The notes beneath the pieces are model-generated. The model ran no database searches. It was not told the DNA's origin and saw only the letters and a list, made by a program, of their open reading frames with translations. A stretch of 63,632 nucleotides of DNA, the filler included, from Reclinomonas americana ATCC 50394 (lineage: Eukaryota): assembly GCA_048213135.1 (NCBI GenBank). It is 9 parts of 5 records of this genome, joined end to end, with 100 filler letters (N's around TTAATTAATTAA, not from the genome) between each part and the next. Parts side by side here need not be neighbours in the genome. Positions count along the whole stretch, not along the records: positions 22,141 to 48,686 come from PS015633.1; 8 more parts are not named here. One strand, 5' to 3'. This document shows positions 19,193-62,300 of this stretch, piece after piece (position 1 is the first letter of the stretch; every line of letters begins with the position of its first letter). The position numbers and the translations under genes were made by a program.

Positions 19193-19413
19193 NNNNNNNN
19201 NNNNNNNNNNNNNNNNNNNNNNNNNNNNNNNNNNNNNNNNNNNNNNNNNNNNNNNNNNNNNNNNNNNNNNNNNNNNNNNNNNNNNNNNNNNNNNNNNNNN
19301 NNNNNNNNNNNNNNNNNNNNNNNNNNNNNNNNNNNNNNNNNNNNNNNNNNNNNNNNNNNNNNNNNNNTAATAATTAGCTGCTTAATGTTTTTCTCGCCTT
19401 CCTCACTTTTGCT

Positions 19414-20410
19414 TCACCGATTGTTCACATTGCCTTCTTCTGCGTCGCTGTCGCTCTCATCCTCGTCACCGTCTTCTTCATCGTCGCTCTCCATGTCACG
19501 ATCCGCGATCTTCGCGGTGCACTCGCGGAGATACTCGACCGCGCTCAACGTGCTGTCGTCATGCGGTCCGAAGACTATTTGGCGACCCTCCACACACTCG
19601 ACCAGCAGCTTCGAAGCCTCATCCAGTCGCTCCATGGCCATGAGAAAGACGGCGTAGTTGAGCATGGTCTTGAGGGTCTCGCGGTTCTTGTCGCCGAGGA
19701 CGTCGCGGCGCGCTTGTAGACATTCGGCATACAGCTCTCCAGCCTCGGTCAGCGACTCGACAGTTCCCTTCCGCTTGAGACACAGCGCCAGGTTGTTCAT
19801 CGACGACAATGTGGAAGGGTGGTGATGGCTGAGCAGCTGGCGGCGTGAGCTGCAGCACTCGCGCAGAAGCACGATGCGCTCGTCCAGTCGGCCCGCGTCA
19901 CGAATGCAAAAGGCGGTCTCGTTCATCGAGGTAAGCGTGTCGGGATGAATTGTTCCCAGCACCTGACGGCGGAGATCCAGGCACTCTCGGTGCAACGCCT
20001 CGGCCTCCTCGAATTCTTCCATCGACACGAGCAACTTGGCGCGCCAAAACAGCGACCGCAATGTGTCTGGGTGAGCGGCGCCCAGGACACGGCACTGCCA
20101 CTGCCAGCTTTCGACCATCATCTCCAGATTGTCGGTGTCGTAGCCGAGCCACGTGTGTGTACGCATGCAGTCGAGCATCTCCAGCACGTCGAGTTCGTCT
20201 GCCTCCTCGATGTACATGCTACACAGGTTCTGCATGACGAGCACTCGACGACTCCGGCGGCGCACAGCGATGCACAGCCACGACACGGCATGAAACAGAG
20301 CCCCCTGATACTGGCGGACTTCGTCGTCTGTGAGCGACGGTACGAAGCGCTCGGCAGCAAACTCGCACACATTGCTGACGGCATCGAAGACAGCGGTGTA
20401 AATGTCGGCT
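19414..20410 (-). CDS. TPR-repeat protein, copy 2 (near-identical to copy 1)
   Basis: 318 vs 319 aa with only a few substitutions (L>S, V>L, R>K, R>Q, one indel in the acidic tail). Confidence 0.85.
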
Positions 20411-20510
20411 NNNNNNNNNNNNNNNNNNNNNNNNNNNNNNNNNNNNNNNNNNNNTTAATTAATTAANNNNNNNNNNNNNNNNNNNNNNNNNNNNNNNNNN
20501 NNNNNNNNNN

Positions 20511-23500
20511 GGGAAGTGCTCATGGGTCGACGCCATGTTGACTTCATGTCAGCTGGTGTATTTGGATAGCGCGACTGCGTACTCGTTGGTGGCGCGTGCA
20601 GTGGGCGGTGACGGGAGTGTGGGAGCGTTTGGGCAGACGGGTGTGGCGATGCAGACGGCGCCGTTGGCGTTTACGGTGGCGATTGTGGGCGGGGATGGTG
20701 TGAGGTTGTCGTTGTCGTCGGCGACGTTGTATGCGGTGGTCGATGATCCGGAGGAGGAGAAGCTGTCGGTCAAGGTGAATTGGAGAGAGGAACAGCAGTG
20801 AGGGCGACGAGGGAGTGGAGCAAGAGTGGGAGAACAACACTGTTTGTTTCAGCTGGCAGAGTGGTTGGGCACATTCATGAGAGAGCGGCGCATGGAGAAG
20901 ACCTACATTGCCTTCTTGTGTGGCAGAGAGTGAGCATCCGAGTGGCTGGACACAGCGTGAAGTAACGAGAGAAAGAGGGCACAGAACGGGAAGAGTATCT
21001 TTCTCTTTCCCAGTCATCAACAGGCAATGAGGAAGAGAAGTGCTTCCCAATGACTGGTGCAAGCATGGAGAGCAGGACTTTTTTCCCTTCTCACATCGAC
21101 AGACAGTGAGCCAGCATGAGAGGTCAGGAGAGAATGAGGCACAGGATGTGCAGGACTTCTTTCTCCTTCTCAGTCATCGACAGACAATGAGCATCAGAGT
21201 CGCTGGTTATTGAAGACGAGAAGTGGGAAGAGAAGAGCGAGCGTTGCCATTCTCATCGTCGAGCGTGCAAAGCGCAGACAGAGCACAATATCTTTCCTTT
21301 TTCAAGAGGAGACACTGCTGGTCCCCTTTTGCCAACCTTCTCCATCGCGCGCGCAGAACCTCGACACCCGGTACACCTGGGTGTGTGTGGGACCCTCGGC
21401 GGCCAGGTGTACCACGGACACGCTCACCGACTCGGCTCTCACCATCTCCAACCTCTTCCGCGGCACCTTTACCATCACTGTCACCGTGCAGCGCGGAACT
21501 CGCACTGCGTCCACGGTCCTGCCAATGGTGGTCGATCACCGCATGAGCATCATTATGGAACTGGTTCGTCGCGCCCGCCAAGTGTCATCCAACGTCTCCG
21601 TTTCCGCTCATTAGCATTCCTCCATTCCAGCGTTCCGAGCGAGGCGTGGTACCGCAGCAGAGCGTCATTGACACGTCGCTATCGTATCTGGCTCGCGCGA
21701 CCGTGTCGTCCTCGGTCACGCCGTTGACGTACTATTGGACACTGCAAGGTCTCGTTTTCTAGCGTCTCGCGCCATCTTGCTACGCCTTCCACTGATGCCA
21801 GCAGCAGATATCGCGTCTGGCAATGTCACAAGTCTGCCGAGCGACCACTTCAGCGGCTTGCCTGGACTGGATTCCTCACAACCGCGGCAAATCCGCTTCG
21901 AGCCATTCGCGCTCGTCGAACAGCGACAGTATCTGCTGGCGCTGCGTGCCAACGCCACGAACGCAGATGGTACTTCGAAGGATTCATGCTCTCTTCGCTC
22001 GCAGCGTTGCTCTCTCTCCCTCGCTTCTCTCTCTCTCTCTNNNNNNNNNNNNNNNNNNNNNNNNNNNNNNNNNNNNNNNNNNNNTTAATTAATTAANNNN
22101 NNNNNNNNNNNNNNNNNNNNNNNNNNNNNNNNNNNNNNNNCTCGCTTGCACACACACACACACTCTCTTTCGCACACACACACACTCTCTCTGTCTCTGC
22201 TGCTGTTCTCTCTTTTCGCTCGGTTCTCTCTCTCCCTCCATCTTTCGCTTTCTCCCCTCTTCCTTTTTCTCCCCCACTCCCTCCCTCTCCCTCTTGCCCT
22301 CTGTCCTCACTCTCCCCTCTTTGCCTTTTTGCAGTCGTCGGCACCATTCGCTTCACCACAAACAACTTTCCACGCCGCGGTTCCCTAACGGTGTCGCCCA
22401 CCGATGGCATCTCGTACGACACACAGTACACGTTTAGCACCGGCTCCTTCTCGGATGCGCACCCGCCGCTCACCTACTCGTTCTACTACGTGACGCCCTC
22501 GAGTGGACTGCGAGTTGAGTGGCAGCACAGTGCGAATCTCCTTATCGCGTCATCTCACCCACCGCATGTACGCAGTCGTCCCTGGGCGTCACCGTGCGCC
22601 CGGTTCTGCGCAACGTCAAGCTGCCCGCCGGCGACCCCGACAATGCCAATGCGCTGCTGGTGGGCGTCGTGGTTCGCGACAGATATGGGGCGAGGTGTGT
22701 GCATGTTCTCCGCCTCGCTCTCTTGTCTCTCTCTCTGTGTCCCCTCATTTCACGACAGTGTGGAAACGAATACGACTGTCGTCGTCTCCCCACCATCGTG
22801 GGCCTCCGAGACGAGCTCCACTGTGCGCGCCTCCATCTTCAACGGCCTCGTCACCAATGCGCGCGTAACCGGCCAGGCGCCGAGCTACGATCAGTATGCG
22901 GCCGCGTTGAGTCGCTTTGGCAGTGCCCTCGACGCTCTTGCGGCCATGCCACTTCGCGAGATGCTATTCAGTGACGCGGACGCCAATGGCGTTGTGGTTT
23001 CCAGCCTGCGAAGCATGATTCAGACCATGAACGGGTATGTCACCAGTGAGGCGCTGGCGCTGGACACGCAGCCAGACTCGGGCAAGACCGTGCTCTCTGT
23101 GCTCTCCAAGTTCACCAGGTGTGGGGGTGCTGCTGAGAAAACTGCTTTATTGCGCTGTGAATTGTGTGCCTAAAGTCCACGCTTCCGCAGCTTTCTGTAT
23201 CTGGTGCCCTTGTCAGACGACGTATCCCAGTCGATGGTGATGAATACGGCCACATTCATGCGCACCATGGGACCATATGTGGCCGCCATGGATCTTGTCG
23301 ACAAGCAAGTTGTGCACTGCTCACCCTCGTTTCTCTTCCCCCGCCTTTCCTTATTCTCGTGGTACTCACCTCTTCGTTGGTACAGCTCTTCCTGACGTGC
23401 ATTGACCGCTTGGTATACGCCTGCGCACGGCCACTGCCGGCAGCTGTGACGTCTGCTGTGTTTTCCGGCGTGCAGTCGGCGATTGCCAATGTCGCCGTGT

Positions 23501-32430: not shown

Positions 32431-33985
32431 ATGTTTATGCCCCTGACTCGCTTCCGTACATGGCAGTTTTGCTCGTCTGGAGTCGCCGCTGGATCTCGGC
32501 GCCGCCTCATTACGCGTGCTCGTGTTGAATTCCACGCTGGTCGACTGGGCGCAGATTGAGATGCTGCGCGAGGGGATGCCCAACTTGGAGGAGGTGCATC
32601 TGTGCTTCAACGAAATCAGCAGCATTCCGGGTGGTGAGTTGTGCTCGGTGAAGGTTGATTTATTGGGATCTCCATCCCTCGCTGCCTGTCTCCTCTCCCT
32701 TCCTCCCCTTCCCTCCCTCACCCCATTCCCCCCTCTTCCCCCTCAGACGGCCACGTGGGCGACTTCCCCAACCTGCGCGTCATCAACCTGGAAGAAAACT
32801 TCCTCTCCGACTGGCGCGACGTCCTCAAGTTCTCTCGCCTTCCACGGTCAGTTCGCTTCTTCATTCCATCTCTCTCTAGGCATCATTCCGTTTGCTGACT
32901 CTTTGTTTATCACTCTCTCTCTCTCTCTCAGCCTGGAGCGCCTGATCCTCAACAGCAACGATCTGAGCCACATCTCCTTCGAGGGCGTCGCGGAGCCGTT
33001 CCCCGCGCTGCAGGCACTGCACCTGTCCGACAATGCGATTCGCGAATGGTCGAGCGTGGACGCGCTGCATCACATGCCGCTGCTGGAGGAGCTCCGCTTC
33101 CAGCGCAACCCTGTGCTGTGCGATTTCAGCAGCAGTGCATCGCGACAGCTGGTGATCTCCCGCCTCGGCCACCTGCACATGCTGAATGGCAGCACGGTGC
33201 GCGACAAGGAGCGGGTGGATGCGGAAAAGTTCTACTTGAAGCGCTACTGCTTGCCGGACCAGCAGGCGAGTAGCGCAGCGTCTCCACTCTCCCCCGTGCT
33301 CCATTCGCAGCAACTCACCTCTCTCTCTTTCTCTGTCGCATCACAGCGTCTGTCAGAGGCCGAGTTCCACGTCGCACATCCGCGTTTCGCCGAGCTCGCG
33401 GAAAAGCACCCCGACGTGCTGGCGCAGGCGTTGGCGGAGAGCCAGCAGGCGGCGAGCGGCAGCACAGAGCTTGTTGGTGCGTCCCTTCTCTCTCTCTCCC
33501 TCTCGCTGTCTCCCTTCCTTTTTTTAAATGCACTCTTGTGTTGAACAGAGGTCACACTGCGCACGATGAGTGCCGCGAGCGCCACCAAGCCGGAGCAAAA
33601 GAAGCGACTGCCGCTGACCATGACCGTGCAAAAGCTGAAGGCACTGACGCAGGCGCTTTTCAAGCTGGAGCCGGCGCTGCAGCGACTGTGGCATTTGGAG
33701 GACGCCAGTGTGCCGTTCCCCGAGGAGCTCGACGACGACATGCGCGACCTCTCCTTTTACGGCGTGAAGAACGGCTCCACCATCAATATGGAGGAGCGTG
33801 ACCTGGAGGAGGAGGCACGACTGGCGCACCGTGCGGCACAGGAGCGTGCGGCGGTGGCTCGGCGACAGCTGCAGGAGGGCGACGCGCGCGCCATGCATCG
33901 GCGAGCAGCGCACGAAGAGGAGGTCAGACGACTGGGAGCCGGTGACGGTGCTGGTGGCAGTGGTAGTGGTGGTGGTGACCAGTAG
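32431..33985 (+). CDS. TBCE: Tubulin-folding cofactor E (LRR plus ubiquitin-like domain), N-terminus in gap
   Basis: LRRs LVLNST..MPNLEEVHLCFNEI, FPALQALHLSDNAIREW, RQLVISRLGHLHMLNGSTVRDKERVDAEKFYLK, and UBL KKRLPLTMTVQKLKAL..ELDDDMRDLSFYGVKNGSTI. Confidence 0.88.
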
Positions 33986-37500: not shown

Positions 37501-40500
37501 CTCTAGCTACAGCCAGCCTTCCATGAGTCCCTCTCTCTCTCTTTCACCACCACTGTCTTTCTGCCTTCATAACAGCGTCTCTGGCTACAGTCAGTCCTTC
37601 ATCAATCCCTCTCCTTTTCTCTCTCTCCCCTCTCTCTACCCTCCCTCCCACACACAAACCATGGGATCGGTCACACGACCGAGAAGGAACAACTTGCTGA
37701 ATCCCTCGACGGCCACCGTCAGCAACTCGGCGGCCACCGCATCATCGGGGTCGAGCGTGAGGCAGCTGAGCAGCACGCGCAGCAGCTCGCAGTGATCGGG
37801 TCCCAGCGGCTGACCGGCGGCTTCGGCAGCGGCAATCTCCGTCGCATCCACAAACGGTCGAATGCCAAACAGCGCAATCATGTCGAACACGGCCTTGACG
37901 GCCGGTGTCTGCACTTGCGCCAGGTCGTTGATGATGATTTGGCCGAGGAGGGGAATTTGTGCCACGGCTGTGCCCTGTTGTCGCAAACAAACAGTTACCA
38001 CCGAGACTCTTCAACGAAAGGAGCAGGCCGGGAGCGTACCTCATTGAGCAAGCAGTACAAGCCAAGGCAGCGCACTGCCTCCTGTCGAATATCGGGCTGT
38101 TCCTGCTTCAGCGCCGGGAAAATGACAGTCTCCAGCCAGCCAGAGAAAGCACCGTTCGCGGCGTCCTGCGCAAAAAGAGAGTCAGCAAGTGAATCAACTC
38201 AATGTGTGAGAAAGAGAGTTCACCAACCTTGGTGGTGTTCTGCAGCACGTGACCAACAATGTAGAGTGCGCGGCGCCACATCAGGCGGTCAAAGTTCTCC
38301 AGGCGCACAATGTTGACCTTGACCTCCTCCATCTCCTCCGCCAGCGTGTCGAGTTGCTGCGAAAATGTGAGTGTGGTGAGCGTCAAGAGTGAGAAACAAG
38401 AGGCAATCACAAGGAAAGCCCCACCTGCTTCACTTCCTGCGTCTCGGCAAAGCGCTCCTCCTGCACCAGCATGCTCTTCTCGGCCTCGAGACGCTCATAC
38501 TCGGCCTGCATCTCGCGCAGCTTGTTCTGCTCCTCCTCGAGTTGCTCCTTTCGCTCCGCATCGGCTTCCTCGTCGCCCTCCTCCTCCTCCTCGCCGGCAG
38601 CGCCCCCGGCTTTCGCCACACGCGCACGGCGCGCCTCCTCGATCTGGTCGCAGATTTCGGAGATCGACATGGTGATGAAACTCAGAAAATCGTTGCGGCT
38701 GCTGTGCATCGCCGGCAACACGTCCAATACAATCGACAGGTCCGAGTCTTCCAACACCGGCTCCGTCAGCAACTCGTCTGTGATCGAGTGTGTGAGGGAA
38801 GGGAAGAATTTGGAAAAAAAGGTGTTAAAGGACACGCAACGATACAACTTGGTCAGCTGTCGGCGGCCGGCCTCGTCGGCAAAGTCGAGGAAGCGACTGA
38901 TGCCCAACAGCTGCCGGAACACAAAGTCGTCCTCTTGATTCTCCACCATTACATCGCAGAAACCAGTGACCTCCGGCAGCAGTGCATCCAGCTGCGTCCA
39001 CAGCTTGTTGGCGTGGCAGTACACGCAACACATGCGCCAGAAGAAGGCCGTCTCCGACGTCAGTTGCTTATCGACCGACGGCTGCACGAGCAGTTTGTCG
39101 CGCGCGGCGTAGTTCTCCAGCAGTGCACCGGCAATGCTCTCGCACACAGTCTCGTTTTCCTCAACGTCAAAGAGCGCCCAGAACTGCACAACAATTGTTG
39201 GGCACACACAGAGAGGGAAAGACAAGTATGGTTGTCAACGCCAGACGTACCTTGGTGGGCGAGGCCTTGCAAAAGTTGGCAAACCACGACTCGCAAATGA
39301 GCTTGGCACACGAGGTGCGCACGGCCGCCGAGCGATCCTTCACGCCGTCGCTGATCAGCGACACACGTTGCTCGGTCGTCCACTTGAAGTCCTTGGTGGA
39401 GCGCGGGGCGTGGCTGCCGAGCACGGTGAAAACATGCGCCCGCACCTCCTCACGCATGTCACGACGGCGATTGAAAATGTACGGCGCCGTGTACCCCGAG
39501 AAGGAGAGCGACTCGAGCACCACGCGCCGCACCTCGGTCGAATTGTCGGTCTGCAGCAGGCGCACGAACTCCTGCGTGACGGGGCAGGAGGCGGCGTCGT
39601 CGGGCATCTGCAAGCGCGCCAGGGCGTACACGGCCTGCATGCGCACAGTGGCGGTCTTGTCGTGCAGGCGACGCAGCAGCGTCGACTGAATGTTGTCCAC
39701 GAGCGCCTCGCTGCGACGACGGCGAAGTGAGGAGGAGGATGAGACAAGAGGAGGCGGATCGAGAAAGCATACCTCATCTCGGCATCCTCACCCAGTGCCT
39801 CCAGCACGGCGGCCACCAGCTGGCACACGCGCAAACGCACCGTCTTGTCGCGAGCCGATGCCGCGTCTAGCACGTGCTGCAGGAGAGCGGCGGCCAGTCC
39901 GTCATCCTCGCCGCTGCCGTCGCGCCAGTCGATTTGCGGCACCGCGCTAGCGATGAAGGCGATCAGGCGGTCGCTGCTCAGCGAGCCCACAGTGTCGGCG
40001 GGGGCGGCCAGGAAGCGGTCGCAGCAGTCGAAGAACTGCGAGGGGGAAGATGGGGAAGGGGTGAGATTAAGGGACCAGGGGGAAGGAGGGCAGGGGGCGA
40101 GGGGGATCGAGGAATAGGGGGATGAGGGGACGGCGGCGAGTTCTGCAAGTGTGGGTGCTACTTTTCCTGCGCTCATTGTCGCACTGCTCCATTCAACTCA
40201 CAGCTCACTCACTCACAGTCAAGCTCATTTGTCACAGTAGCTCTTGCGCTCTCCCACTTCCCGGCTGTCTGTCTGTTTGTCTGTGCTCCTTCACTTTCAC
40301 TTCAGCGTTCTTCCTCTCTCTCCTTCGCAGACTCTCACTCCTATGCAATCGCACGACACTGTTCCTTCTTACCTCTCTCTTTCTCTTGTTCCCAATGTGT
40401 TTGTTTGTCTGTCTGTGTCAGCCTCCCTCTCACTTCAGTACTCTTCCTCACACTCTCCCTCGCAGACTCTCGTTTCTTTGCTTCTCTTTTCCCTCTTGCC

Positions 40501-43788: not shown

Positions 43789-43824
<36 letters not shown>

Positions 43825-43828
<4 letters not shown>

Positions 43829-44225
43829 TACGTGTGCTGTTTCGGTGTCATGAGGAGTCTGCATTGCGCGGATTCACTCATGACTTTTGAAGCTGTCATT
43901 CTTCCCCTTCACTGTCGTGGCGTTTGTCTCCTTAAGGCTGTCTCTCTCTCTCTCTGTTTGTGTGTGCTGTTTCGGTGGCATCGGAAGTGTGCATTGTGTG
44001 CATGACTTTTGAAGCTGTCTCTTCTTCTCCTTCACTGTCACGGCGTCTCTCGTGACTTCCTTGCTGCTGTCTCTCCCTCACACATTCTCTGTCTCATTCT
44101 CTCTGTGGCTGTTGTTCGTGTGCTGTTTCGATGGCATCGGGAGTGTACATCGTTCACTCAGTTTGTTGAAGCTGTCTATTCTTCCCCTTTACTGCCAAGG
44201 TGTTTCTCATGACTTCCCTGTTGCT
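43825..44225. repeat. Degenerate tandem repeat (3 units)
   Basis: gtgctgtttcg[ga]tg and tttgaagctgtc..cttcactg cores recur three times. Confidence 0.65.
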
Positions 44226-44291
44226 GTCTCTCTGTTCTCTCTTTCTGTTTCTCCTCTCCCTGCCCTCTCACACCCTCACCTCTTTTCCAGA

Positions 44292-47200
44292 ATGGCCAGG
44301 GACTCGCCGGCTGGCCCCGTGTCACCAGACACCGAGCACCTGTTGTCACATCGGGAGAACAGCTCCGGTAATGGCAACGGCGCTTTGCGATACGGCGATC
44401 GCTTTCGTTACGTTCATGTTTTCCAGGGAGGAGAAACATGCAGCGTGCTGATTCTCCCCGGCTAATAGCACGCGCGCACGGCGCCGACGACGCCGAGGAA
44501 TACGACGCCGAATACAGCAGTGGCGAGGACGACGAGGAGAGCGGTCACCGAGGCACACACGATGCGAGGCGGTCGTCCATCATGCAGCCAGCCGATCACC
44601 AACCACCCTCGTCGCTGGAGCGCAGGACAAGTGCACGGACGCATTCAGCAAGAAAGGTCAATCTCAACTCCTTCCTCCCCCTTCACCTCTCTCTTATTTC
44701 TCACTCTCGCCCCGCGCAGGTCAAGACCATGTTGCCGGCCACGGCATTCCTGCATCATGCCTCGTCCACACCGAATGCGACAAATGGCAGCGTCAACAAT
44801 GACGGCGACGATGGCGACGCAGCCGCCGCTGCCGCTGCTGGAGCTGGTGGTGGTGGTGGCGGCGGCGGCGCCCAGCATCACCACACACCCGGTGGTCGAC
44901 CCAATGGCCACGGCCGCACCAGCCTTCGTGAGCGTTCCATGTCGTTGTACTCGCTGGACGAGTCGGCGGCCGCCAAGTTGCCACAGTACGCTGTGGTGCC
45001 CACGCGCAACAAGCTCATTTTTGACTGCCGCGAGCTGTTTGCGGTGTCCAAGCCGTTCTACTACTTGCTGCGGAGTTTGTCGTTGTGGTGCGTCAAAGAG
45101 GCAATGGGGGGGAATGACGATAAGATTGTGATTCTTTATCTTGCTTCCCTTTCAACCCTCTCGCGGCCACTTCGTCTCTCCCTCGTTTGCCGCTTTCTAT
45201 CCTGGTTTCTTTTTCCCCCACGCCCCGTAGCTCGCTCAGCTCAGTGAGCTCTTTCTGCCCCTTGGTTGTCTGTCTGTTTGTCTGTTTCGTTCCCTGCATT
45301 CGCTCCCTCTCTCTGCCTCCTTGTTACTCTCTTTGCTTGTTTGTGTCTCACTGCCCTTGACTCCGTATCTCCCGTCCCTCTCTCCCACATTTCTCTCTCT
45401 TCTCTCTCTCCCGCCCTCCCTCCGTCCTTGTGGCTCTCTTTGCTTATATGTCCGTCTCTGCCCCGTTTACTCTCTCCCTCTCCCTCTCCCTCACCTCCTC
45501 CCTCTCCCTCCCTCTCCCTCCCTCTCCCTCACCTCCTCTCTCTCTCCCCCTCTCTTTCCTTCTCTCCCCATCCCTTCCCCCATATGCAGGCACCCGAGTT
45601 CCTGGGCCTGGACGTGGCACATTCTGCTCATCGTTTTAATGTCGTCGGTGGCCATTGGCTGCCAAGTGATTGCACTGGTGCTCTTTGATCAGGCCGAGCA
45701 TGAGCAGGTGCGTGCCAGTGCGCGTGCTCTCTATCACTTCTCCCACCGGTGTCGCCTGACATTGGATGCGCGCAGCTCTACAACATTCTGATGAGCATCT
45801 TTTTTGTCGCCTCGGTGGCATTTGCGCTGGCCTACACGTATTCACATGATTTCATCCGACTCATGCAAGAGTGTGTGTACTCGGTGCGTTGTTGACGGGA
45901 GAGAGAACATGATTATGTGGCGCACTTACCGCTCACTCCTGTCGCGCAGGATCTCGCGGCCACAAGGAAAGCATTGAATCAAGTGGTGCTGGTGTGGTTC
46001 TTTTTCGTGGCCATCGGAATCGGAGTGGACACGCCAGTCGTTGCGTTGTCGTGGAGGGTCGTGGTATACGCTTGCGCCTTCTCCACTTACCTGGGTATGT
46101 TGTGTGTAGAGCGTGCACTACATCCAGCACGACATTCAACGATACGAAGTTTCGTCATGATACTGGTCGTCCTTTTTCTCGTCTCCATCGCCTGACGTTT
46201 CCCTCCTCCCTTCAGGTATGGATCACATTGCTCATTGTCAGCGACGTTGTGTTCCACATGCTGGCGTCGGGCGCAATCTGCATCTTCATCGCCATCTGCA
46301 TGCTGAAGGTGTGAAATATTCTGACCTCCTTCTCTCTCCTTCGCACAGCCTCACATGTGCCTCGTGTCAGGTGCTCGAGTGGACCAGGCTTGTACATCGC
46401 ATCCAGGAACGAGGCGTCACAAATACTCATGTAAGCCAATACAGAGAGAATGGGAAAGACGTGTGTTCCTGTCACTAACGACGACCTGCGCAGCGAACCA
46501 TGCGTGACCACATGTCCATGGCGGATGCACTGTCGGATACCAACAAGAAAGTGGAAGTTGCGCGCACCACGCAAACCGTAATAGAGCAGGAAGTAACTCA
46601 CAAATAACTTGCAGTGGTACCTCGGCACGGTGATTTTGGTGTGCATCGGCTTGATCGTAGTGGAGGTGTATTCGCAAGTGCAGAACGGCAGCTCATTCGT
46701 GTGGATCATCCGCTTCATCCACACGACGATCGTCGGGCTCATCTTTTTGTTGGCGGCCGCCGTCGTCACATCACGGTCCGGCAAGGTGAGCGAGTTTGAC
46801 TGCCCCCTGTTTCTCTGTTGTCGCTTGAATCAAGTGCGGTGTGTGAGTCCGACTCTGCGGAGTGGAGTCGGTGGTGTTCCTCTCTCTCTCCTCTTCTCTC
46901 TCTGTATCTCGTTCTGCGTGCCTCTGTTCTTCTTCTCACCGCTGTGTGTAGAGTCGGAAGGCGGTGGCCCGCTTGCGCACGCTGGTCACCAACAACGAGA
47001 CGCTGGTGCGCGATCTCGACTCGCTCCTGTTATATTACATGTCGGTGGGCGAGAGCACCGGCTTCAAGATCTACGGTGCGTTCACTCGCAAGGCAGGTTA
47101 TTGTTTCGCTCGTGCTCATCGCTCTTCGTTGCAGGTCTGCGACTGGATTTTGGTTTTGTGACCAAGGTATGTGAGAGAGGCTTTCTCCAAATCTACCTGT

Positions 47201-47298
47201 CCTTGCTCACCCTCCTCTGTGTGCAGACGGCACTATCCGTGTTCACCATTTGCGCGTTCGTGGTGACACACACGGTGCAGAACAAAAAGATGAATTGA
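44292..47298 (+). CDS. 7TM ion channel of the insect odorant/gustatory receptor superfamily (GRL/DUF3537-like)
   Basis: The spliced product has a long cytosolic N-terminus, seven hydrophobic segments, TM6 GLIFLLAAAVVTSRSGKSRKAVARL and a split TM7 DLDSLLLYY..TGFKIYGLRLDFGFVTKTALSVFTICAFVVT near the C-terminus. Confidence 0.75.
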
Positions 47299-47432: not shown

Positions 47433-49430
47433 ATGGAATATGTGCAGGCAGCGGGCGCTCTCGCCCTCGGCCTCTCTGCACCTCTCATCGCCCTCGTGCG
47501 ACACGGCCTCACAGTCGACGAAGCCGCACAACTCGACGTTATTCCGATCCATACACACTAATCACTGAGGACGGACACTCACTCTCTTTGCCGACACACA
47601 GGGACCTCTCCGTTTCGCGGTCTACGGTGGCATCTTCGAGCTGCCGTTGCCCTCACCGCTTCTTTACATAACGCCAGTGGTGGACGGCGAATCACCGCTC
47701 ACGCGACACTCCACCATTCGTCAACTGTGTGATCGCATCGAGCGTGCCGAGTGTCTCTCCACGCTCGGCTTCTCTGTGGAGGTCTCTCTGCTGGCCGCAC
47801 TGTTCACGGAGCAGAAGGCCGATGGGACAGAGCGTTCGCGAGTGATCTATGCGCGAGTGGACGATGAGAGGAGCAGTCGCACACTGGCCGACGTGTTTGG
47901 ATCGAGGCCGACGATGCCTCAGCGATTGCTGGTGCGGCTTGTGCGTCGCGTGCATGCAGAGGAGGCTGCAGAGGAGGACAGCATGCAAGTGATTACGCAG
48001 TTGAGGAACGAGTTGTCGGCGTACGATTGGTTGGTGGAGTTTTTTGATGCTGATTTTTTCGTGCAGTGTTCCGGGAGCGCTGAGCGTTGTGCATTTCGCC
48101 GTGTTGACGCACGACGTGGCACGTTTGCGGCTGAAAGTGGGCGCGCATGTGCGAAAGAAGCGCGAGTCGTTGATGGCACGGACGATGGATGGCTGGACTG
48201 TTGCGTGAATACCTGTGGAGAACGTTGGGGTGCCGGAGACTCACGAGGAGGGGAAACTGTGGCAGGCAATGCATCTCGCCATCTTTGTGAACAGTGCGGA
48301 GGCGGCGGAGACGCTGCTTGCGGCTTGCCCCGAACTGGCCATGGTCGGTGGGCATGATGCCATGCTGGTGAGTTGAGATCGGAGAGAAGTGCGTGTGGTT
48401 TGTTTTACTGCTCTGACGATAATACACGCACAGCCGATCCACTTGGCGGCAACACGAGGCACCATGGAGATTGCGCGGGCACTGATCGAAACCAATCATC
48501 TCGTGCCCGAGTATCTCAATCAGCAGAACCGACTGGCCCTGCACTTGGCGGTGCTGCAGGACAACGACGACATGGTGCGTCTGCTGGCGGAGAAATTCCC
48601 CGCAGGCGTCAAGCAGCGCGACGACGACGGCAAGCTGGTGCGTGCGTTATGAGCAATACTTGTTGCCTGGTTTCGCGCTCATCACANNNNNNNNNNNNNN
48701 NNNNNNNNNNNNNNNNNNNNNNNNNNNNNNTTAATTAATTAANNNNNNNNNNNNNNNNNNNNNNNNNNNNNNNNNNNNNNNNNNNNATACATTACGCCGC
48801 GGCCAATGGCAATCTGGACATGCTGATGATGATTGCGGAGATGGCGCCCGAGTCGCTGGACTCGCTGACCGACACGTTGGAGTCGGTGATGCTGACAGCG
48901 GCGGAAAATGGTGCGCTGCGCGAGGTGGTCTGCTGTGGTGTGATGACTGACTTTGGCGAGTGCAGGACACTGTTCGGTGGTGGAGTATTTGCTGGAGACT
49001 GCGCCGCAGCTGGTGACGGTTGCCGACGAACGTGGCATGACACCGCTGCACTGCGCCGCTTGTCGCGGCCACGCCGACATTGTCAACGTGCTGCTGTCGG
49101 CATCGCCCACATCAAGCAGCCGGGCCACCGTCAAGGGCGGATTCCTGGTGTGTGCTGGCCCACCAATGACATTGAGGTGCATTGCTGACCCATTCTCCTT
49201 CTCTCTCTTTTACGCAATAGCCACTGCACCTGGCGGCCACCCACGGACACGTCGAGGTTGCCGATATCCTTCTGCGTGCCAACCCCAAGGCCGCCACCAC
49301 GGCGACCACCGGTGGTTCTCTGCCGGTGCACATGGCTGCCGCGTGCGGCAGCGTTGCACTCCTGCGACGATTGTTGCAGGATGATGCCAATCCGGAGGGC
49401 GATATGATGGAGAGCAGCGATGGGCGATTG
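47433..49430 (+). CDS. Ankyrin-repeat protein
   Basis: DGWT|AMHLA, PIHLAATRG, LALHLAVLQDN, HYAAANGN, GMTPLHCAACRGHADIV, PLHLAATHGH, GSLPVHMAAACG. The 3' end is uncertain. Confidence 0.85.
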
Positions 49431-50568: not shown

Positions 50569-52460
50569 ACTGGATCTCACGCTGGTGCGTATGCCGCGGC
50601 GACCATGGTGTGGATTCAAGTGTATGTGTCGCTGATGAGTTCGTGAGTAGGAGTCGTCGGTGGAGGTGGTAGGCGAGTTGGCGCGTGACGAGCGTGCGCC
50701 GGGAGGCTTTGAGATTCGTGCCGATTTCTGGCGCACGATTCACCGCGCCGATCCGTCGTTCACGATGCGTGTGAACCCCGACTCGAACGTCGACACGCTG
50801 ATGGACAACAGGCATCTGACGCTGCGCGGCGACCGCGTGACCAAGATCATGCGCATGCGGTGAGTAGAGAAGGCAGCGTTCGATTCCTGCGGGCGATGCT
50901 GCTTGCTCACTCTCCTCGTCCTCCTCCACTCAGTGACTGGATCATCCGCGCCCTCCGCGACCACTTCTTCGAGAAGAACTTCCACGAGGTGATGCCGCCG
51001 ACCCTGGTGCAGACGCAGGTGGAGGGTGGCTCCACGCTGTTCGAGCTGAACTACTTTGGCGAGAAGGTGTGATCCAGTTCCTGTCGTGGTCCCCAGTGCT
51101 CATCGTCGTCATTCATCATTGCTGCGCAGGCCTACCTGACGCAGAGCTCCCAGCTCTACTTGGAGACCGTGAACACCTCGCTGGGCGACGTGTTCTGCAT
51201 TCTTCCGTCGTACCGCGCTGAGCAGAGCCACACTCGCCGTCACTTGTCCGAGTTCACTCACTTGGAGGGTGAGATGCCGTTCATCACGTTTGAGGAGCTG
51301 CTCGGCTACCTGGAGGACATGGTGTGCGACGTGTCGCGCCGCATGCTGGAGGCGCACGGCGCGGAGTTGCTGGAGATGAACCCGGATTTCAAGGTGTGGC
51401 AGCGACCGTTCCGCCGCATGCGCTACTCGGAGGCCATCGCCTTTTGCCAGGAGCACGGCATTGCCAAGAACGACAAGGGCGAGCAGTTTGAGTATGGCGA
51501 TGTGCGTGCACTTGTTGGCAGGAGGAGGGGGAGAAAGGGGAGGAGTAGTGGAGGTTGCTGACATGGATTGGCGTGGCAGGATATCTCCGACGCCCCCGAG
51601 CGCAAGATGCTGGAGCTCATTGGCGAGCCGGTGTTCCTCACGCACTTCCCGGCGGCCATGAAGTCGTTCTACATGCAGCCGGTGCCGGGAGAGGAGGACT
51701 TGACGGAGAGTGTGGACTTGCTGGCGCCGGGTGTGGGCGAGATTGTCGGTGGATCCATGCGCATATGGGAGGAGGTGGGTGAAGGGGGTAGGAGGGAGAA
51801 GGGAAGGGAGGAAGAAGGGGGAAGGGCGAAGAGAGGAGATGCGCATGGTGAGGCTCTTCTCAGGAGAGTTTCTCATTGTGTGTGCGTGCGCGTGTATGTG
51901 TATGAGTGAGAGGAAAGAGGTTGANNNNNNNNNNNNNNNNNNNNNNNNNNNNNNNNNNNNNNNNNNNNTTAATTAATTAANNNNNNNNNNNNNNNNNNNN
52001 NNNNNNNNNNNNNNNNNNNNNNNNTGCATTTTGTCGTGTATAGATTTCACGCCTCTCTCCTTCTCTTTTTCTGTGCATGCGGGTGCCTGTGGGTGAGAGT
52101 GAGTGTGTGTCATTTTGGTGACAACTCGGGTCGTCTGTTGTGTGGGGCACATCACAGGCAAGCCTGCTCTTGTCTTTCGATCGCGCTCTCCCTTTCTCCC
52201 TCTCTCTCACTTTGTTCCACAAATCATCTGAAAGCACGGCACTCACTGCTCGCGTGCAGGAGAAACTGATTGCTGGCTTCCAACGCGCCGGCATTGCTCC
52301 CGACGTCTACTACTGGTACATTGATCAGCGCCGCTACGGCTCATGCCCGCACGGTGGTTTCGGTCTCGGTGTGGAGCGCTTTGTGATGTGGATGGCCAAC
52401 GTGCCGCACATTCGTGACGTGCCAATGTTTGCGCGCATGATGGGTCGCTGCAAGCCCTAA
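50569..52460 (+). CDS. NARS1: Cytosolic asparaginyl-tRNA synthetase (5' part in gap)
   Basis: [115 protein letters not shown]. Confidence 0.97.
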
Positions 52461-53499: not shown

Positions 53500-55170
53500 T
53501 CCTAAGATATCTATTCTCTCGAGTGTTTTCATCGCCCCACAACCGGCAACGCATCACGGTGAGGTGTGCGTGCATCGTGTCGCAGGGGCTATAAACTCGG
53601 CCTTTCATCGTCACCGTCCGCAACACGAGGCGTCCACCGACAATGTGGCCAGCATGCACGAGGGTGATCGCGACAAACGAGGCACTTGGNNNNNNNNNNN
53701 NNNNNNNNNNNNNNNNNNNNNNNNNNNNNNNNNNNNNNNNNNNNNNNNNNNNNNNNNNNNNNNNNNNNNNNNNNNNNNNNNNNNNNNNNNNNNNNNNNNN
53801 NNNNNNNNNNNNNNNNNNNNNNNNNNNNNNNNNNNNNNNNNNNNNNNNNNNNNNNNNNNNNNNNNNNNNNNNNNNNNNNNNNNNNNNNNNNNNNNNNNNN
53901 NNNNNNNNNNNNNNNNNNNNNNNNNNNNNNNNNNNNNNNNNNNNNNNNNNNNNNNNNNNNNNNNNNNNNNNNNNNNNNNNNNNNNNNNNNNNNNNNNNNN
54001 NNNNNNNNNNNNNNNNNNNNNNNNNNNNNNNNNNNNNNNNNNNNNNNNNNNNNNNNNNNNNNNNNNNNNNNNNNNNNNNNNNNNNNNNNNNNNNNNNNNN
54101 NNNNNNNNNNNNNNNNNNNNNNNNNNNNNNNNNNNNNNNNNNNNNNNNNNNNNNNNNNNNNNNNNNNNNNNNNNNNNNNNNNNNNNNNNNNNNNNNNNNN
54201 NNNNNNNNNNNNNNNNNNNNNNNNNNNNNNNNNNNNNNNNNNNNNNNNNNNNNNNNNNNNNNNNNNNNNNNNNNNNNNNNNNNNNNNNNNNNNNNNNNNN
54301 NNNNNNNNNNNNNNNNNNNNNNNNNNNNNNNNNNNNNNNNNNNNNNNNNNNNNNNNNNNNNNNNNNNNNNNNNNNNNNNNNNNNNNNNNNNNNNNNNNNN
54401 NNNNNNNNNNNNNNNNNNNNNNNNNNNNNNNNNNNNNNNNNNNNNNNNNGTCACCACTTGTGCCAGGCCAAAGTCGATCAGCCGGCTGCTCTTGAGCACG
54501 CGATCGTACATCACGTTCGACTGCTTGACGTCGCCGTGCACCACCATGTTTTCGTGGCAGTGCTGCAAGGCCAGCAACAGCGTGTACGCGAAGTGCACCA
54601 GGTCGTCCATCGCGACGAGTGAATCGCTGGCGTATCGCGGCATCCACATGGTCCGAGTGTGGCGATCGTACTCGACCACCTGCACGAAGCATTGACGCAC
54701 GGGCGACTGCTCGTCCATGTGCCGCCACAGCACGTCGATCACTTGCGCCTCATTCAGCATCGTCGCCATGGCCACGCGTCTCTCCGTCGATCGCGATCGG
54801 TCGTCGAGCAGCTTCAACGTCTTGCCCACCAGCGCACCGTTGCCAGTCGCCACTGTGTATGTGGGGGTGTGTGGAGGGTGTCATGATATCACGATCAAAA
54901 GGAAGCAAGCGAAGCTACGTGTGCGCTGCGTACGCAACGTTTGCCGGATCTCTGCTTCTTCTTCGGTGGCCACGGTGCTTGCAAGTTTTTCTGCAGCCAT
55001 TCGAGCGCTGCGCCAGAGAGACTGATAGTGAGTGTCGGTGAAGGTATCTGATCATCGGCGCAGAACTCACTCGCTAGCTGCGCAGCCGAGAAGCTTCCGG
55101 TTTCTGGGGATTCGGAGCTGCAGCGCCGGCAGCAGCAGAGGGCGCGGATGCGGATCCAGCAGCAGATGCC
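53500..55170 (-). CDS. Ser/Thr protein kinase (interrupted by a gap)
   Basis: LVGKTL (VAIK-like), LLLALQHCHENMVVHGDVKQSNVMYD..RLIDFGLAQV. Both ends are uncertain. Confidence 0.8.
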
Positions 55171-55413
55171 ATGGTGCTGCAAACGGGCCAAGGGATGTAC
55201 CATGTGAGTGAGAGGTGTGCTGATGTGATTGCGGCGCGAGGAGGTGGAGAGATGAAGGAGAAAGAACATGCATTTACATAAGAAAAAGTGTGCAACGATG
55301 ACGACGGTGGTTGNNNNNNNNNNNNNNNNNNNNNNNNNNNNNNNNNNNNNNNNNNNNTTAATTAATTAANNNNNNNNNNNNNNNNNNNNNNNNNNNNNNN
55401 NNNNNNNNNNNNN

Positions 55414-56392: not shown

Positions 56393-59300
56393 TCACGTCA
56401 CCATCCGCCTCAACACCGACTCGGTGGATTTGTTGACCACTGAGCGTGCAGGTCCGTACGCCGACGCCGAGCCCGTGATGATGCCGAGCACCACCACCGA
56501 GGTGAACAGGAGCCAGGGGAACACGGCCTGCAGCGGCAACTGCGTGAACAGCACCTGCTGAATGGTCATCGTGTAGCTCACGACGTTGCCTGCACACGGG
56601 TGAGTGCAAGAGTATTTGACCCTCCCGCGCCAAGCTCGCTCACCAATAACAAAGCCCATGATCGACGATGACAGCACCAACACAATGGCTTCGTAGACGT
56701 ACACCCGCGTGACGAGATGCCGACGAGCGCCAAGAGCACGCAAAATCTGCACATCAACGACAGGCGCGTGAGAAAGGAACTTTACAATGAGCAGGCGACG
56801 ACGCCAAAACGCAACTCCCATCTCCTTCGACTGCTCATGCACATTCGAGTACATGCTGGCCAGCAGAGAGAAGAAGCAAAGAGCTGCCACAAGAAACGGG
56901 GATCAGCACAGATGCTGCGATACTCGGGAAAAAAGGCACTCACCCATCGCAATGACCGTGCAAAACAGGAAAAACACGTCGAGCACCAGCGTCACTTTGC
57001 CAATGGCCTGCGTGCGCTGATTAAAGTCCCACCACCAAAATCCGTAGCTGTTGAGCGCGGACAACTCAGTCTGTGCGTGAGGTGGGTGAGTGAGAGTGGC
57101 AAGAGCACACACACCATCAGCCACGACGCGCACCTTCAGTTGCTGAATGTCTTTGCTCGACATGTTGTCGGGCAGACGCAAGAAGATCTCTCGCATGGAC
57201 ATGTCGTCGAGACTGCGGAAACGCCCGGCCGACATCTCCACCATGGTGGGGAGGGAGACCACCATGTCCTGCCACAGATTCATCGTCATCACACATGGTT
57301 ACAACGGAGGAATTGAAAGGGAAGATTGCGAAACTTGCACGCGGTACAAGTTGGGGAACTGCGAAAAGGCGTATCGCGGACTGGCATCCATCATGCCCAC
57401 CGTGTTGACAGGCAGCAACAGCTCCTGCACAAACACAGCACAGATGAGCAACGACCACGGGAAAATATCGAATGACGTCACACTCACCGCTCCGCTTCCC
57501 GTTCCCGCATACGGACTGAGATGGAAGAGCGGGGCGAACCGCGTGACATTCACCAGCAGCGAGGTCTCATAGTACGACCCGACAAGGGCGTCCAGCGAGC
57601 CGCGACGAGCGTACAACTGCTCGCCAATGGACTGCGCACGAGGATAAGACGGAGAGTGAATGTGAGCACACAATCCACACCCTCGTAGACTCCTTCACGC
57701 ACCAATGTGGACGGATACTCCATCGACTGCACGTGCAAGAACTGCTCCTTCATCACATCGAATGCGGTCGGCGACACGGCAAACACATCGACATCGGCGT
57801 AGGCGTATCGACCGGCCGTTTGTACTCGCGTGTACTCAATGTCGCCAGTCTGTCCCCGTAAATCCGACGAGCCCCACGCCCAGCCGAGCACTTTCGAGTT
57901 CGACGACACAATGTTCTCCACCTCGCGAATCGTGTTCGGTGCGTTGCGTGTGTTGCCAGTCCATGTCTCGGCCTGCGTGGATGGCACAGAATGGGATGAA
58001 CAATGATGGGAAAATGCGTGATCGGCAGTGTGAAAACTGGGACGAGAACGAGAAGGACAAAAAGACAAGGGGACAGGGAGAGGAGTACGGAGGGAATGGG
58101 AGAGAAGACGAAATGAGAATACAGACAGACGGGTAGACAGTGTGCAAGTGACAGAGATTCAGAAAGTGAGAGAGACTATGAGTGAGACAGCGACTTGAGA
58201 GAGAAGAGATAGCAGAAAGATACAAGTACCGAGCCAAAGAACGCAATAGGAGCTCAACAAATACAAGAGGAGAGAGAGGACAGAGAGAGACCGAAAACGC
58301 TCGCACCTTGAGTTGTACTCCACCGCGCTGCAATTGAGCATACGATGCCGACTGAATCTGGGTCGCAAACGTCACCGACAGGAAAATGATAAAGCCGAGA
58401 CTGTGACAGGGCACGCCATCGTGAGTTGAACAAACAACATACCACACACACACACACGCACACTCACTTATTCACCTACTCACTCTCTCTCTCTCTCTCT
58501 CTCTCCTCCCCTTCCCCTCTCCACTCCCTCTCCTCCTGACACCCACCTAATGGCATACATGATGGTGGTCTTGCGGTTGCGTGACTTGTGCGAGACCAGA
58601 TTCTTGACCACCAGCATTCGCACGGCGGCGTTCTCCCAGAAGAAGAGCAGGTATGTGATACCAAACTCGAGGAAGCGTTCCATGTTGAGCGCCAGCAGCA
58701 CAAGACCAAAGAGCATGCCGAGAATCACCAAGAAGAAGATGTTGAGCAGTAGTCCAAACGCCTGCGTCAGCAGTGCGAGCGGGAACACGTAGTACGTGCT
58801 GAATCTGCGGTCGGGTTAGAAAAGGTGGGTCAGCAGGCAGAAGATACACAAAAAAATGCATTCGTGCTTTCACAAACCCAAATACGGTGAGCAGCAGACC
58901 AATCCAGATCGTGCCCCATGGTATGGGTCCATCTTGTGCGCGCTCGATTTCGTACTGCGTGACAGTGAAGTGAGTTCCGAGAGCAAGACAGCACAACACG
59001 ACTCCAAGAGAATGCACCGTCACCGCCTGTGTCCGGGGCCTCTCCGTGTCCAAGGCCTCTTGCAAACGAGCCGACAGCGCCGCCCGAGCCGGGAACACAC
59101 TGGCAGCGCCGGCCACCACCACCGCCAAGACAGTGGCGCCGAGTACCGCCCACCCAGCCAGTTCAGACGGGAGAGTGACTGACACGAGGGTTTCGAGGCC
59201 AGCCGACACGCTGCCGATGGAGGGGGAAACGGTGTGAGACAAGACAATACTCCCAAAGTTGAGCGGCAGTTGCGCAACTAAATCCACGCAATGCGAGCCA

Positions 59301-62300
59301 GAATGAGTCCCGCCACCCATGCGGGTATGGCGTAGGAGAGAGCCTGGATCACGTGCAGGGGTGAGCGCCCAACGCACATGCAGAGCAAAGGTTGTTGTGC
59401 TCACCTGAACAAAGACCAGCTGTACAAGTCCTAATCTGGTCATGCCGATCATGCGCATCACTCCCAGCTCAAACACGCGCGTCTCCACATCAATCTGGTG
59501 CGCGCTGCGATCAGGAGAGAGCAAGGCAAGGACGCAACAACTCGCGACGCACCATCAGCAGAGAGTAGATCAGAATGACGGAGAGGAGGGTCAACATGAC
59601 GGTGACCACGTTGATGATGAGGGAGAGGAAAAGTGTGAAAAATCTGCACATACGCAGTGAGCGCGCAAACCAGAGAGAAATTGCGCGACAGCTGCGATCA
59701 ACAGAGACCTAGTTTGTTGGAGGAAGCCGAGAACCGGCAAGTTGGTATCGAACTGATTGAAGCCGGCCACGTATCGCACTTGCGATGCCAGCGACGTGAG
59801 TTTCTCTTGGATCGACTCGTAGTCCGTGGTGCCGTACGTGTCCATTCGCGGTGGCGGCACATTGTACAGAGCCTGTGCGGCATAGTCGGTCATTCGGAGC
59901 GAGGCCATGCTGCGCGGGTACAAGAACCGTGAGACAATGAACAAGGACACTCTTTCGCAATGTATGCGCACCGATCGCGCGTATCGGTGTAGATGAGTGG
60001 GTTGCTGTTGTTGGCCAGCAAGCGCGGGAAGAACGACGACTCGGTCAGGATGAGATTGTCGATACCTGNNNNNNNNNNNNNNNNNNNNNNNNNNNNNNNN
60101 NNNNNNNNNNNNTTAATTAATTAANNNNNNNNNNNNNNNNNNNNNNNNNNNNNNNNNNNNNNNNNNNNAAAGGGGGAAGGGGAAGGGGGAAAGGGGGAAG
60201 GGGAAGGGGGAAAGGGGGAGGAAAGGAAAGAGCAAAAAGGAGAAGGGACAGGACGGAAAGAATGAGGGGGAAGGGCAAGGGAGGGATGAGGGGAAAAGGT
60301 GCGTCAACGATAAAGTCGAAGATGGACATGGAATACTTAGCGAACGTGTCGCATCTCCTCTCCTCGCGAAGACGCTGCTCTCTATTTCTTCTATGTCGCG
60401 GCTCTGCAACCCTTCTTTGTTCACCCGTCTGCCTCCCCTTGCTATACACCCCTCGAACAACAGAATATCCACTCTTTCCTCTCGTTTCCCTCTTATCGTG
60501 TTCATTATTCTGTCAAGCTGTCTGTCCTCGCTCTGTCCACTCTCTCTCATCCCACTCTCTTTCACCCCTGTCTGTCCTCGCTCTGTCCACTCTCTCTCAT
60601 CCCACTCTCTCTTTCCCTCTCTGATGCTGCCTTGCACCTCTTCGTCCTCCTCGACCAGCCTGCCACTTTTTCTCACTCCTTCATCCTCCTCTCTCTCTCT
60701 ATCCTCATCCCCTCTCGCTCTCCCTCAACCTCTCCTCTCTCCTCCCCCCGTATCGCACTCACCCTATTGTATGTGCCTGCCCCCTGGTTATCCAAGTCGG
60801 CATCATCGGTAAGCTGGAAAAAGCTGCCACGCGGCAAGCCGAACGCCAGATGCATCATGTCGCCAATGTGCACATTGATGTTGGCGGCCATCAGCTCCGA
60901 GATGACACTGCATGCGGGGTGAGAGAGAAACACCAACGCAAGCAAAGGAGTCGACAAACGTACACTTGACCCGGCGGAATCACGCCACCCGTGTACGCGC
61001 GGCCGAGACCCATCAGCTTCTCCGCTTGCGAATCGATCACCAGCATGGTGGCTCCGCGACTGGCGTACACAGGGCACAAATAGAAGAAGCAGTCGGCCGA
61101 GCGGTCATTGTACACCTCTGTGGCACGAGGGATGAGTGGAGAAGAAAAGCAGAAGGCAAATGAGAATGCCTCCTCACCTCCTTGCGCACATCCGCCAGGC
61201 TGCGTGGCATTGTAGGCCCAGTACGTCGTTGAATCGAATTGCGTCTGCACCGCCCAAACACGGTGAGGGATAGGGCTATTTGCAAACTTCGCTCCCTCTC
61301 TCCTCCTTGCTTCTCATTCTCACAATTCCACTCCTCTGCAGTTTCTCTCAACCTTCCTCTCTTCCCACCCCACGCAACAAAGTTGGCGGCTGGCGACGAA
61401 CACATGTTGGCCAGATACACATCCGTGTACACCGTGGAGCGAGCGGTGGCAAACGAGAACTGATGATGTGGATCCTGCACGGCCAGTGCCTCCGTTAACC
61501 TCGTAAAGTTGAGCGAGCGGGCGCCATTCGTCGGCACCAACTGCACATCGATCTCGCCATTGTTGGTCTCGGCCAGACGCAAGGAGATGATCGGAATGAC
61601 CTGCCGCCCCAGGGTGTGTGTAAGAGCGTGCGCGCAACGAGAGAAAGAGAGAGCAAATGATCGCGCAACATTCAGCGTCGTCTGCGCCAACGCAAACACA
61701 AACACGACCACGAGACAACTCGACAAGCCGAGGCAATACGACACCTTGCGCTTCTTGATGTTGTTCCACGACTGCTGCCGATACAGTCCAAACCACTTGC
61801 CGCACAGACACGACGTCAACCAGCCCTGCTTCTCCTCAACCTGCCGCGACGAGCGCCTGCACCCATGACTCATCGTGAGCGAGGAGTTGTCGCCTGAAAA
61901 AAATTCGCGCGCGCCACACACTCAACTTGATAGGCTCCCGCAAAATCTCTGCAATTGGCCGCGCCGCAAAATGCACTCTCCTCGCGCGCTGCGATGACGT
62001 GGCGGTGCCGGTGGATCCGCGTCGGCTGCTGGCCACCGACGACGCACCGACCGAGTTGGCCGAGGTGCGTCGCATCAAAGGCGGCCGCTCATTGGCGCCT
62101 GACTTTACACTGGCCGCGAATGACAAGTGCGGTTGCGACACGGAGCGCACTGTGCGGAGACGCGCGGGTCGCGGTAGAGGCGAGCCCGGCGGCTTGAGCG
62201 AGCCTCGCCGAAGGATCGGAGTCACCGGGATAGCGGCTGCTGCTGTTGAGGTTGCATCGCCACCGCCACCTGTTTGACTCGCAGTGTCGCTGTTGGCCAC

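Follow-up and report, generated by a model that had tools for sequence, protein, structure and literature searches.

Does a 13-exon gene of the eukaryote Reclinomonas americana ATCC 50394 encode a relative of the gustatory (Gr) and odorant (Or) receptors of insects, and do its introns lie where those of animal Gr genes lie? The gene occupies positions 44292-47298 (+) of a stretch of 63,632 nucleotides (nt) assembled from GCA_048213135.1, which is referred to here as the window. An earlier examination of the DNA (the sequence-only reading) had proposed that the locus encodes a complete seven-transmembrane ion channel (7TMIC) of the gustatory receptor-like (GRL) kind. We found the locus to be a genuine 13-exon protein-coding gene, a conclusion that we hold with high confidence, and we read the gene as intact. 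We also found that the membrane core of its product probably has the Class-A 7TMIC fold (Gr/Or/GRL/DUF3537 type), a reading to which we assign a probability of roughly 0.55 and under which the protein would be a new member of the superfamily that stands as an orphan by sequence.

The locus contains a genuine, probably intact gene

When the 13 exons were joined by their coordinates, they gave an open frame of 552 codons that began at the first in-frame ATG (44292), contained no in-frame stop in any of the exons and ended with a TGA at 47298. All peptides quoted in the sequence-only reading were found at their expected places in this translation, and the spliced frame bore out its description of the gene, which looks complete, has many exons and encodes a membrane protein with several passes. 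It was also right in stating that no single open reading frame (ORF) reveals the gene: the longest stop-to-stop frames in the region were 291 and 233 amino acids (aa), and none spanned the whole gene. No ATG was present upstream of 44292 within the reading frame of the gene; exon 2 offers an alternative start, an ATG at 44438.

The base composition of the frame had a clear coding signature. The GC content at third codon positions (GC3) was 0.73 in the whole model frame and 0.76 in the membrane core, with second-position values (GC2) of 0.45 and 0.38, respectively; in comparison, GC3 was 0.78 and 0.87 in two exons of the window that have Pfam support. The codon counts of the core correlated with those of the Pfam-supported exons in frame (r = 0.53) and not in the other two frames (-0.13 and 0.04). 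The pyrimidine content of the plus strand was 66% in the introns and 50% in the exons.

The 12 introns were 59, 63, 502, 68, 66, 122, 62, 63, 58, 166, 59 and 60 nt long, so that nine of them fell between 58 and 68 nt. As spliced, 11 of the 12 had GT-AG borders, and in most of them a CTCAC, CTAAC or CTGAC was located approximately 12-22 nt upstream of the AG. An intron of 78 nt in a class II tRNA-synthetase gene elsewhere in the window served as an independent control. The ORFs on its two sides align to adjoining stretches of the Pfam profile (one up to position 170, the other from 172), its donor is GTGCGT and its branch-like site is CTGAC. The donor and branch signals were common to this control intron and the candidate gene. 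On the basis of the open frame, the coding signature, the intron signals and the tRNA-synthetase control, the gene was judged to be real. A gene on the minus strand was rejected, as the ORF at 46215-46829 had no family match and ran antisense to exons with high GC3.

The individual junctions were scored with leave-one-out matrices against all candidate pairs that were GT-AG, in-frame and stop-free. The junction of the model was top-scoring for eight of the 12 introns and not for introns 1, 6, 7 and 9. The junction between exons 6 and 7 requires a GG donor in the form given by the sequence-only reading and is thus non-canonical. After exon 6, GTATGT at 46095 was the only strong donor; it was 1 nt out of frame, and its use would ruin the downstream frame. 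Canonical in-frame alternatives were present at donor 46064 (last exon base 46063, ten residues lost), at donor 46106 (last base 46105, four residues gained) and at donor 46102 (last base 46101) together with an acceptor at 46241, and all of these had low scores. The GTATGT donor falls within a GGG run, in a draft scaffold that has many gaps, and three causes are therefore possible: an error of 1 nt in the homopolymer, the use of a weak alternative donor, or a real frameshift. These features would suit a pseudogene, or an assembly or model error in the region between the third and fourth transmembrane helices (TM3 and TM4), in which case the protein as spliced would not be made. We consider this explanation very unlikely: the 13 exons were stop-free, GC3 ranged from 0.50 to 0.90 per exon and was high on both sides of the junction, and several canonical in-frame junctions leave the rest of the protein unchanged, as the variants alter the TM3-TM4 connection only.

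Predicted topology and overall architecture

The predicted protein of approximately 552 aa was composed of an N-terminal region of approximately 195 aa and a seven-helix core of approximately 358 aa, counted from the segment before TM1 to the end. Residues 1 to approximately 195 were of low complexity and rich in Ala, Gly, Asp, His and Ser, and no Pfam domain was found in this region in the read-through ORF 44372-45244. The hydropathy profile contained seven main peaks at residues 231-256, 265-285, 308-326, 349-379, 421-439, 450-472 and 525-545. With these peaks taken as TM1 to TM7, 20 Lys and Arg residues fell on the N-terminal side of the membrane and three on the opposite side. The hydropathy profile and the positive-inside count are together consistent with seven helices with the N-terminus inside and the C-terminus outside, which was the sole self-consistent prediction.

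In this topology the inner loops span 22, 41 and 52 aa, the outer ones 8, 22 and 10 aa, and a C-terminal tail of 7 aa follows TM7. The 22-aa outer loop was hydrophobic, and an N-G-S sequon fell in the predicted outer TM5-TM6 loop. By analogy with the description of Orco in PMC7746228, the pre-TM1 segment encoded in exon 3 is a candidate re-entrant 'TM0'. The segment between candidate TM7a and TM7b displayed an alternation of hydrophobic and polar residues around a Gly, a pattern that appears compatible with the beta-hairpin that separates S7a from S7b in the solved Grs (PMC12635824).

Comparison with known 7TMICs

The statement of the sequence-only reading that few unicellular members have been described is outdated. 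Protist, chytrid and algal 7TMICs were described in 2020, trypanosomatid and Holozoa 7TMICs in 2023, and the preprint 10.1101/2023.08.30.555482 speaks of 'thousands' in unicellular eukaryotes, bacteria and archaea. To place the candidate among these proteins, we compared it with four groups. The features listed as criteria iii-v for unicellular GRLs by Benton et al. 2020 (PMC7746228) were all found in the candidate. Members of the superfamily are approximately 350-500 aa long, a range that includes the candidate core, and the N-terminal extension brings the whole protein above it.

In layout the candidate resembled the Class-A GRLs of Thecamonas, Vitrella, chytrids and Protostelium (Benton et al. 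2020; Himmel et al. 2023 preprint), which share with its predicted topology the seven helices with an inner N-terminus, inner loops longer than the outer loops, a core of this size, a short extracellular C-terminal tail and a weakly conserved TM7 motif. In contrast to these proteins, the candidate had no detectable similarity to any database protein when compared exon by exon, and it carried the low-complexity N-terminal extension. The gene structures were also different, as protist GRL genes mostly have few introns according to PMC7746228, whereas the candidate has 12. Long cytoplasmic N-terminal extensions before a 7TMIC-type core are present in the kinetoplastid GRLs and some GrlHz proteins; those extensions consist of folded MORN or WD40 repeats, whereas that of the candidate is of low complexity.

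The arthropod Grs (7tm_7, with BmGr9 as a solved example) resembled the candidate in the Thr that opens the TM7 motif and in the five hydrophobic residues of the motif, as well as in a short terminal exon that follows a phase-0 intron. The candidate differed from the insect proteins in the absence of the Tyr that contacts lipids and of the Q/F gating residues, and it had neither the middle ancestral intron nor a 7tm_7 match on any of its exons. The PHTF-like Class-B proteins have the same general seven-helix layout with an inner N-terminus and a long TM2-TM3 inner loop (10.1101/2023.08.30.555482); membership in this class was rejected, as the corresponding loop of the candidate, inner loop 1, was short. 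The inner N-terminus, the long inner loops 2 and 3, the tiny C-terminal tail and the short terminal exon after a phase-0 intron constitute the published 7TMIC/Gr pattern.

Intron positions relative to the ancestral Gr introns

According to the Daphnia Gr paper, most arthropod Grs and nematode gur genes have an intron of phase 0 that lies six codons before the TM7 motif TYhhhhhQF, and the ancestral Gr introns were located 59-60, 36 and 6 codons before this motif. The sequence-only reading had placed phase-0 introns after TM6 (SGK/SRK) and within TM7 (VTK/TAL), and both were confirmed as introns 10 and 12, which follow codons 477 and 529, respectively. With T536 taken as the first residue of the motif, intron 12 was located exactly six codons before it and intron 10 58 codons before it. 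Exons 11 and 12 together were 156 bp long, compared with 159-162 bp in the Grs. The proposed likeness to the ancient 3' introns of Gr/GRL genes is supported by the outer two of the three positions, matched exactly at six codons and nearly at 59-60, and not by the one at 36 codons.

To estimate how often such agreement would arise by chance, nine phase-0 introns were placed randomly in 200,000 trials, with any of the seven Ser/Thr residues in the last 40 positions allowed as the anchor. Both matches arose together in 0.93% of the trials; for the six-codon match on its own the figure was 11%. That the gene is an orphan Class-A 7TMIC in an intron-rich non-animal eukaryote which has kept two phase-0 introns out of the ancestral Gr set of three is, in our estimate, unlikely.

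Evidence for a possible different fold

Several results weigh against the Class-A fold. They would fit a lineage-specific multi-pass protein that folds differently (for instance a transporter or scaffold, or a member of another seven- or eight-helix family) and resembles 7TMICs by coincidence. We regard this explanation as possible but doubtful.

The first of these results concerns the number of helices. A 20-residue hydrophobic stretch (329-348), which the sequence-only reading had skipped, abuts TM4 and permits an eight-helix reading; together with TM4 it forms fifty contiguous hydrophobic residues (329-379) that could make two helices. We rejected the eight-helix topology because it splits the K/R-rich loops over both sides (6 versus 16) and preferred the seven-helix topology, as only that one puts all of them on one side. 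The earlier claim of seven helices with an inner N-terminus is thus backed by the charge distribution, while the count itself is an interpretation. There is a precedent for the extra stretch, since a figure legend in Benton et al. 2020 (PMC7746228) notes that the long TM4 of a cnidarian GRL was mis-predicted as two helices.

The searches for relatives, which were run with single exons or read-through ORFs, connected the gene to none of the 7TMIC families by either sequence or profile. Across ten exon translations and five read-through ORFs, no Pfam family scored above its cut-off; DUF3537 was not matched, and 7tm_7, 7tm_6 and Trehalose_recp gave no match at E up to 10. The sub-threshold Pfam matches were unrelated (FeoB_associated, DUF7942, DUF2678, GPI2 and RPS31), so that no family outside the 7TMICs passed the cut-off either, which provides no support for another fold. 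None of the five PDB sequence searches gave a match inside exon sequence, and the only PDB matches were discarded because they lay on translated intron sequence. Exon 10, which encodes TM5 and TM6, was also used for wider searches. A phmmer search against 1.84 billion representatives revealed no relative; its two matches at E up to 0.001 were spurious, being to unrelated and internally repetitive proteins that were matched in 7 and 5 stretches. A word-indexed search of longer proteins returned 112 candidates, none of which scored. A scan of metagenome contigs gave 598 pattern matches, of which a single one passed tblastn; it was rejected as antisense to an EGF-repeat ORF, leaving no true relative. 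Searching the ESM Atlas with exon 10 produced small bacterial two-helix clusters only, with a best score of 0.87, and was uninformative.

The TM7 motif was likewise poorly preserved. The published form, (T/S)Yhhhhh(Q/K/E)(F/L/M), is diagnostic but not definitive (PMC7746228), and the review PMC12635824 gives TYhhhhhQF as the only signature motif of the Grs. For this reason the G-F-x3-G-x3-D string, which the sequence-only reading had presented as a TM7 signature, is not an established one, although the string itself is present. A regular-expression search for the full published motif in the protein returned no match. The best equivalent in exon 13 was T-I-CAFVV-T-H, in which the Thr and the hydrophobic core are kept, with Ile, Thr and His standing in place of Tyr, Gln and Phe; one of the four key positions thus matches. 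In BmGr9 (PMC11100771), the Thr supplies a ring of hydroxyl groups in the pore, the Tyr touches lipids that penetrate the pore, and gating is done by the Q/F pair; a further ring position, seven residues before the Thr, is mostly polar or charged, and the candidate has a Lys at the corresponding distance from T536, a point in favor of the 7TMIC reading. Chytrid GRLs likewise retain one of the four motif positions, and the failure of the motif therefore weakens an assignment to the Gr/GRL proteins by sequence more than it weakens the 7TMIC fold.

The intron comparison has its own points on this side. The middle ancestral intron at 36 codons was absent and a phase-1 intron was found at 17 codons instead; the use of T536 as the motif anchor was partly post hoc, so that the match reaches a chance level of about 1% only once the anchor has been chosen; and, according to Benton et al. 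2020 (PMC7746228), genes of different kingdoms do not as a rule share their intron positions. A coincidental resemblance would nevertheless have to account for the topology, loop lengths, C-terminal tail and terminal exon, which together make up the published 7TMIC/Gr pattern, and the Class-A fold is accordingly the reading that we retain.

Exon structure and surrounding sequence

The exons of the gene and the parts of the protein that they encode are listed in Table 1.

Table 1. Exons of the candidate 7TMIC gene in the window.
Feature	Position	Strand	Content
Exon 1	44292..44367	+	First in-frame ATG; low-complexity N-terminal region; ends in phase 1 (from splice table and translation)
Exon 2	44427..44656	+	Acidic/basic low-complexity N-terminal region; intron 2 is the best in-frame GT-AG pair
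Exon 3	44720..45087	+	Ala/Gly-rich low complexity, then short hydrophobic pre-TM1 segment
Exon 4	45590..45707	+	TM1 (residues ~231-256)
Exon 5	45776..45883	+	TM2 (~265-285) and beginning of inner loop 1
Exon 6	45950..46093(?)	+	Remainder of inner loop 1, TM3 (~308-326), extra hydrophobic stretch 329-348; 3' end ambiguous
Exon 7	46216..46308	+	TM4 (~349-379); acceptor preceded by pyrimidine tract and CTGAC branch-like site
Exon 8	46371..46430	+	Basic helical segment that continues TM4; inner loop 2, first half
Exon 9	46494..46556	+	Second half of inner loop 2, into TM5; weak donor GTTGCG (score -0.2)
Exon 10	46615..46785	+	TM5 (421-439), short outer loop with N-G-S sequon, TM6 (450-472); ends in phase 0
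Exon 11	46952..47075	+	Basic extension after TM6, candidate TM7a, first hairpin-like strand; ends in phase 1
Exon 12 (32 nt)	47135..47166	+	Second hairpin-like strand, start of TM7b; ends in phase 0
Exon 13	47227..47298	+	Short terminal exon: candidate pore helix TM7b, degenerate motif, extracellular tail, TGA

Repeats consisting of CT, CA or AC are common around the gene, and a CT-rich microsatellite (45472-45579, with CTCTCC and CTCCCTCTCC units) occupies part of the 502-nt intron 3. Directly upstream of the start codon, at 43808-44250, three imperfect direct copies of a unit of approximately 130-157 nt were present with 77-86% identity. These copies, which follow a (CT)17 run, may represent a repeated promoter element or an element of the 5' untranslated region (UTR). 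An intron in the 5' UTR is possible, since a pyrimidine tract and a CAG precede the ATG.

The window contained eight identical linkers, each composed of 44 N, the string TTAATTAATTAA and another 44 N, in which the string gives a stop codon in all six frames. They were located at 8187-8286, 13513-13612, 20411-20510, 22041-22140, 48687-48786, 51925-52024, 55314-55413 and 60069-60168. Twelve further N runs were found, and the window contained 4852 N in total. As the window is thus a chain of contigs, the order of genes across the linkers may be artificial. The candidate gene lies inside one linker-free block, and a gap of 251 N ends approximately 500 nt upstream of its ATG. Within the window, tblastn of the core revealed no second locus (best off-locus E = 0.75), and Rfam gave no match.

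Pfam recognized neighbors at 32447-33982 (+), 37639-39787 (-), 51073-51906 (+) and 54452-54880 (-). They comprised a leucine-rich repeat (LRR) and ubiquitin-like pair, which we take to be a tubulin-cofactor-E-like arrangement; condensin-type Cnd3 and HEAT/Cnd1 exons; the class II (D/K/N) tRNA synthetase whose 78-nt intron is validated; and a protein kinase. The ORF at 22142-23170 (+) carries a REJ domain (E = 7.8e-08) of the kind seen in polycystin-1 and the sperm receptor for egg jelly. An ORF at 56396-56902 (-) contained the C-terminal domain of an FtsX-like permease, which passed the Pfam cut-off (E = 3.6e-09) in an otherwise eukaryotic neighborhood. This permease family is unusual for a eukaryote, and the ORF was either acquired horizontally or retained specifically in this lineage. 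Two TPR_10/TPR_12 ORFs at 17578-18573 (+) and 19417-20409 (-) were inverted with respect to each other, flanked an N gap (19193-19367) and encoded proteins that were 98% identical (325/332 residues). Either the inverted duplication is real or the assembly has placed two haplotypes head to head. The protein matches of the TPR ORF showed 29-43% identity among the 120 matches listed. A uridine-kinase-like ORF had no match in the protein database. The Pfam-recognized neighbors have no functional link to the seven-helix gene.

Proposed mode of action and implications

If the core has the Class-A fold, the insect receptors suggest how the protein could work. The N-terminal region of approximately 195 aa would be disordered and cytoplasmic. 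The channel would be a tetramer whose subunits are joined by an anchor domain, formed by TM7a and the cytoplasmic extensions of TM4-TM6, and its central cation pore would be lined by the last helix, TM7b, encoded in exon 13. Gating, if there is any, would differ from that of the insect Grs because the Q-F pair is absent. The role of a ligand-gated chemosensory channel, proposed in the sequence-only reading, is a putative one, drawn by analogy with the insect receptors.

Confirmation of the fold would extend a superfamily that is already known from thousands of microbes by a further divergent microbial protein, which would be ordinary in itself. The specialist interest lies in the gene structure, that is, in an intron-rich microbial 7TMIC with introns at the positions of animal Gr introns. 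Such an intron test was not open to Benton et al. 2020, as introns are missing from most protist GRL genes. If the orphan Class-A reading with retained introns is true, the ancestral Gr introns would date to before the animals, and the gene would provide fold-independent evidence for the common descent of protist and animal 7TMICs. It would thereby bear on whether the 7TMICs share ancestry or arose by convergence, as well as on the age of these introns. Genes of this kind can escape both ORF-based and sequence-based annotation, and a microbial member that can be expressed would be useful for electrophysiology.

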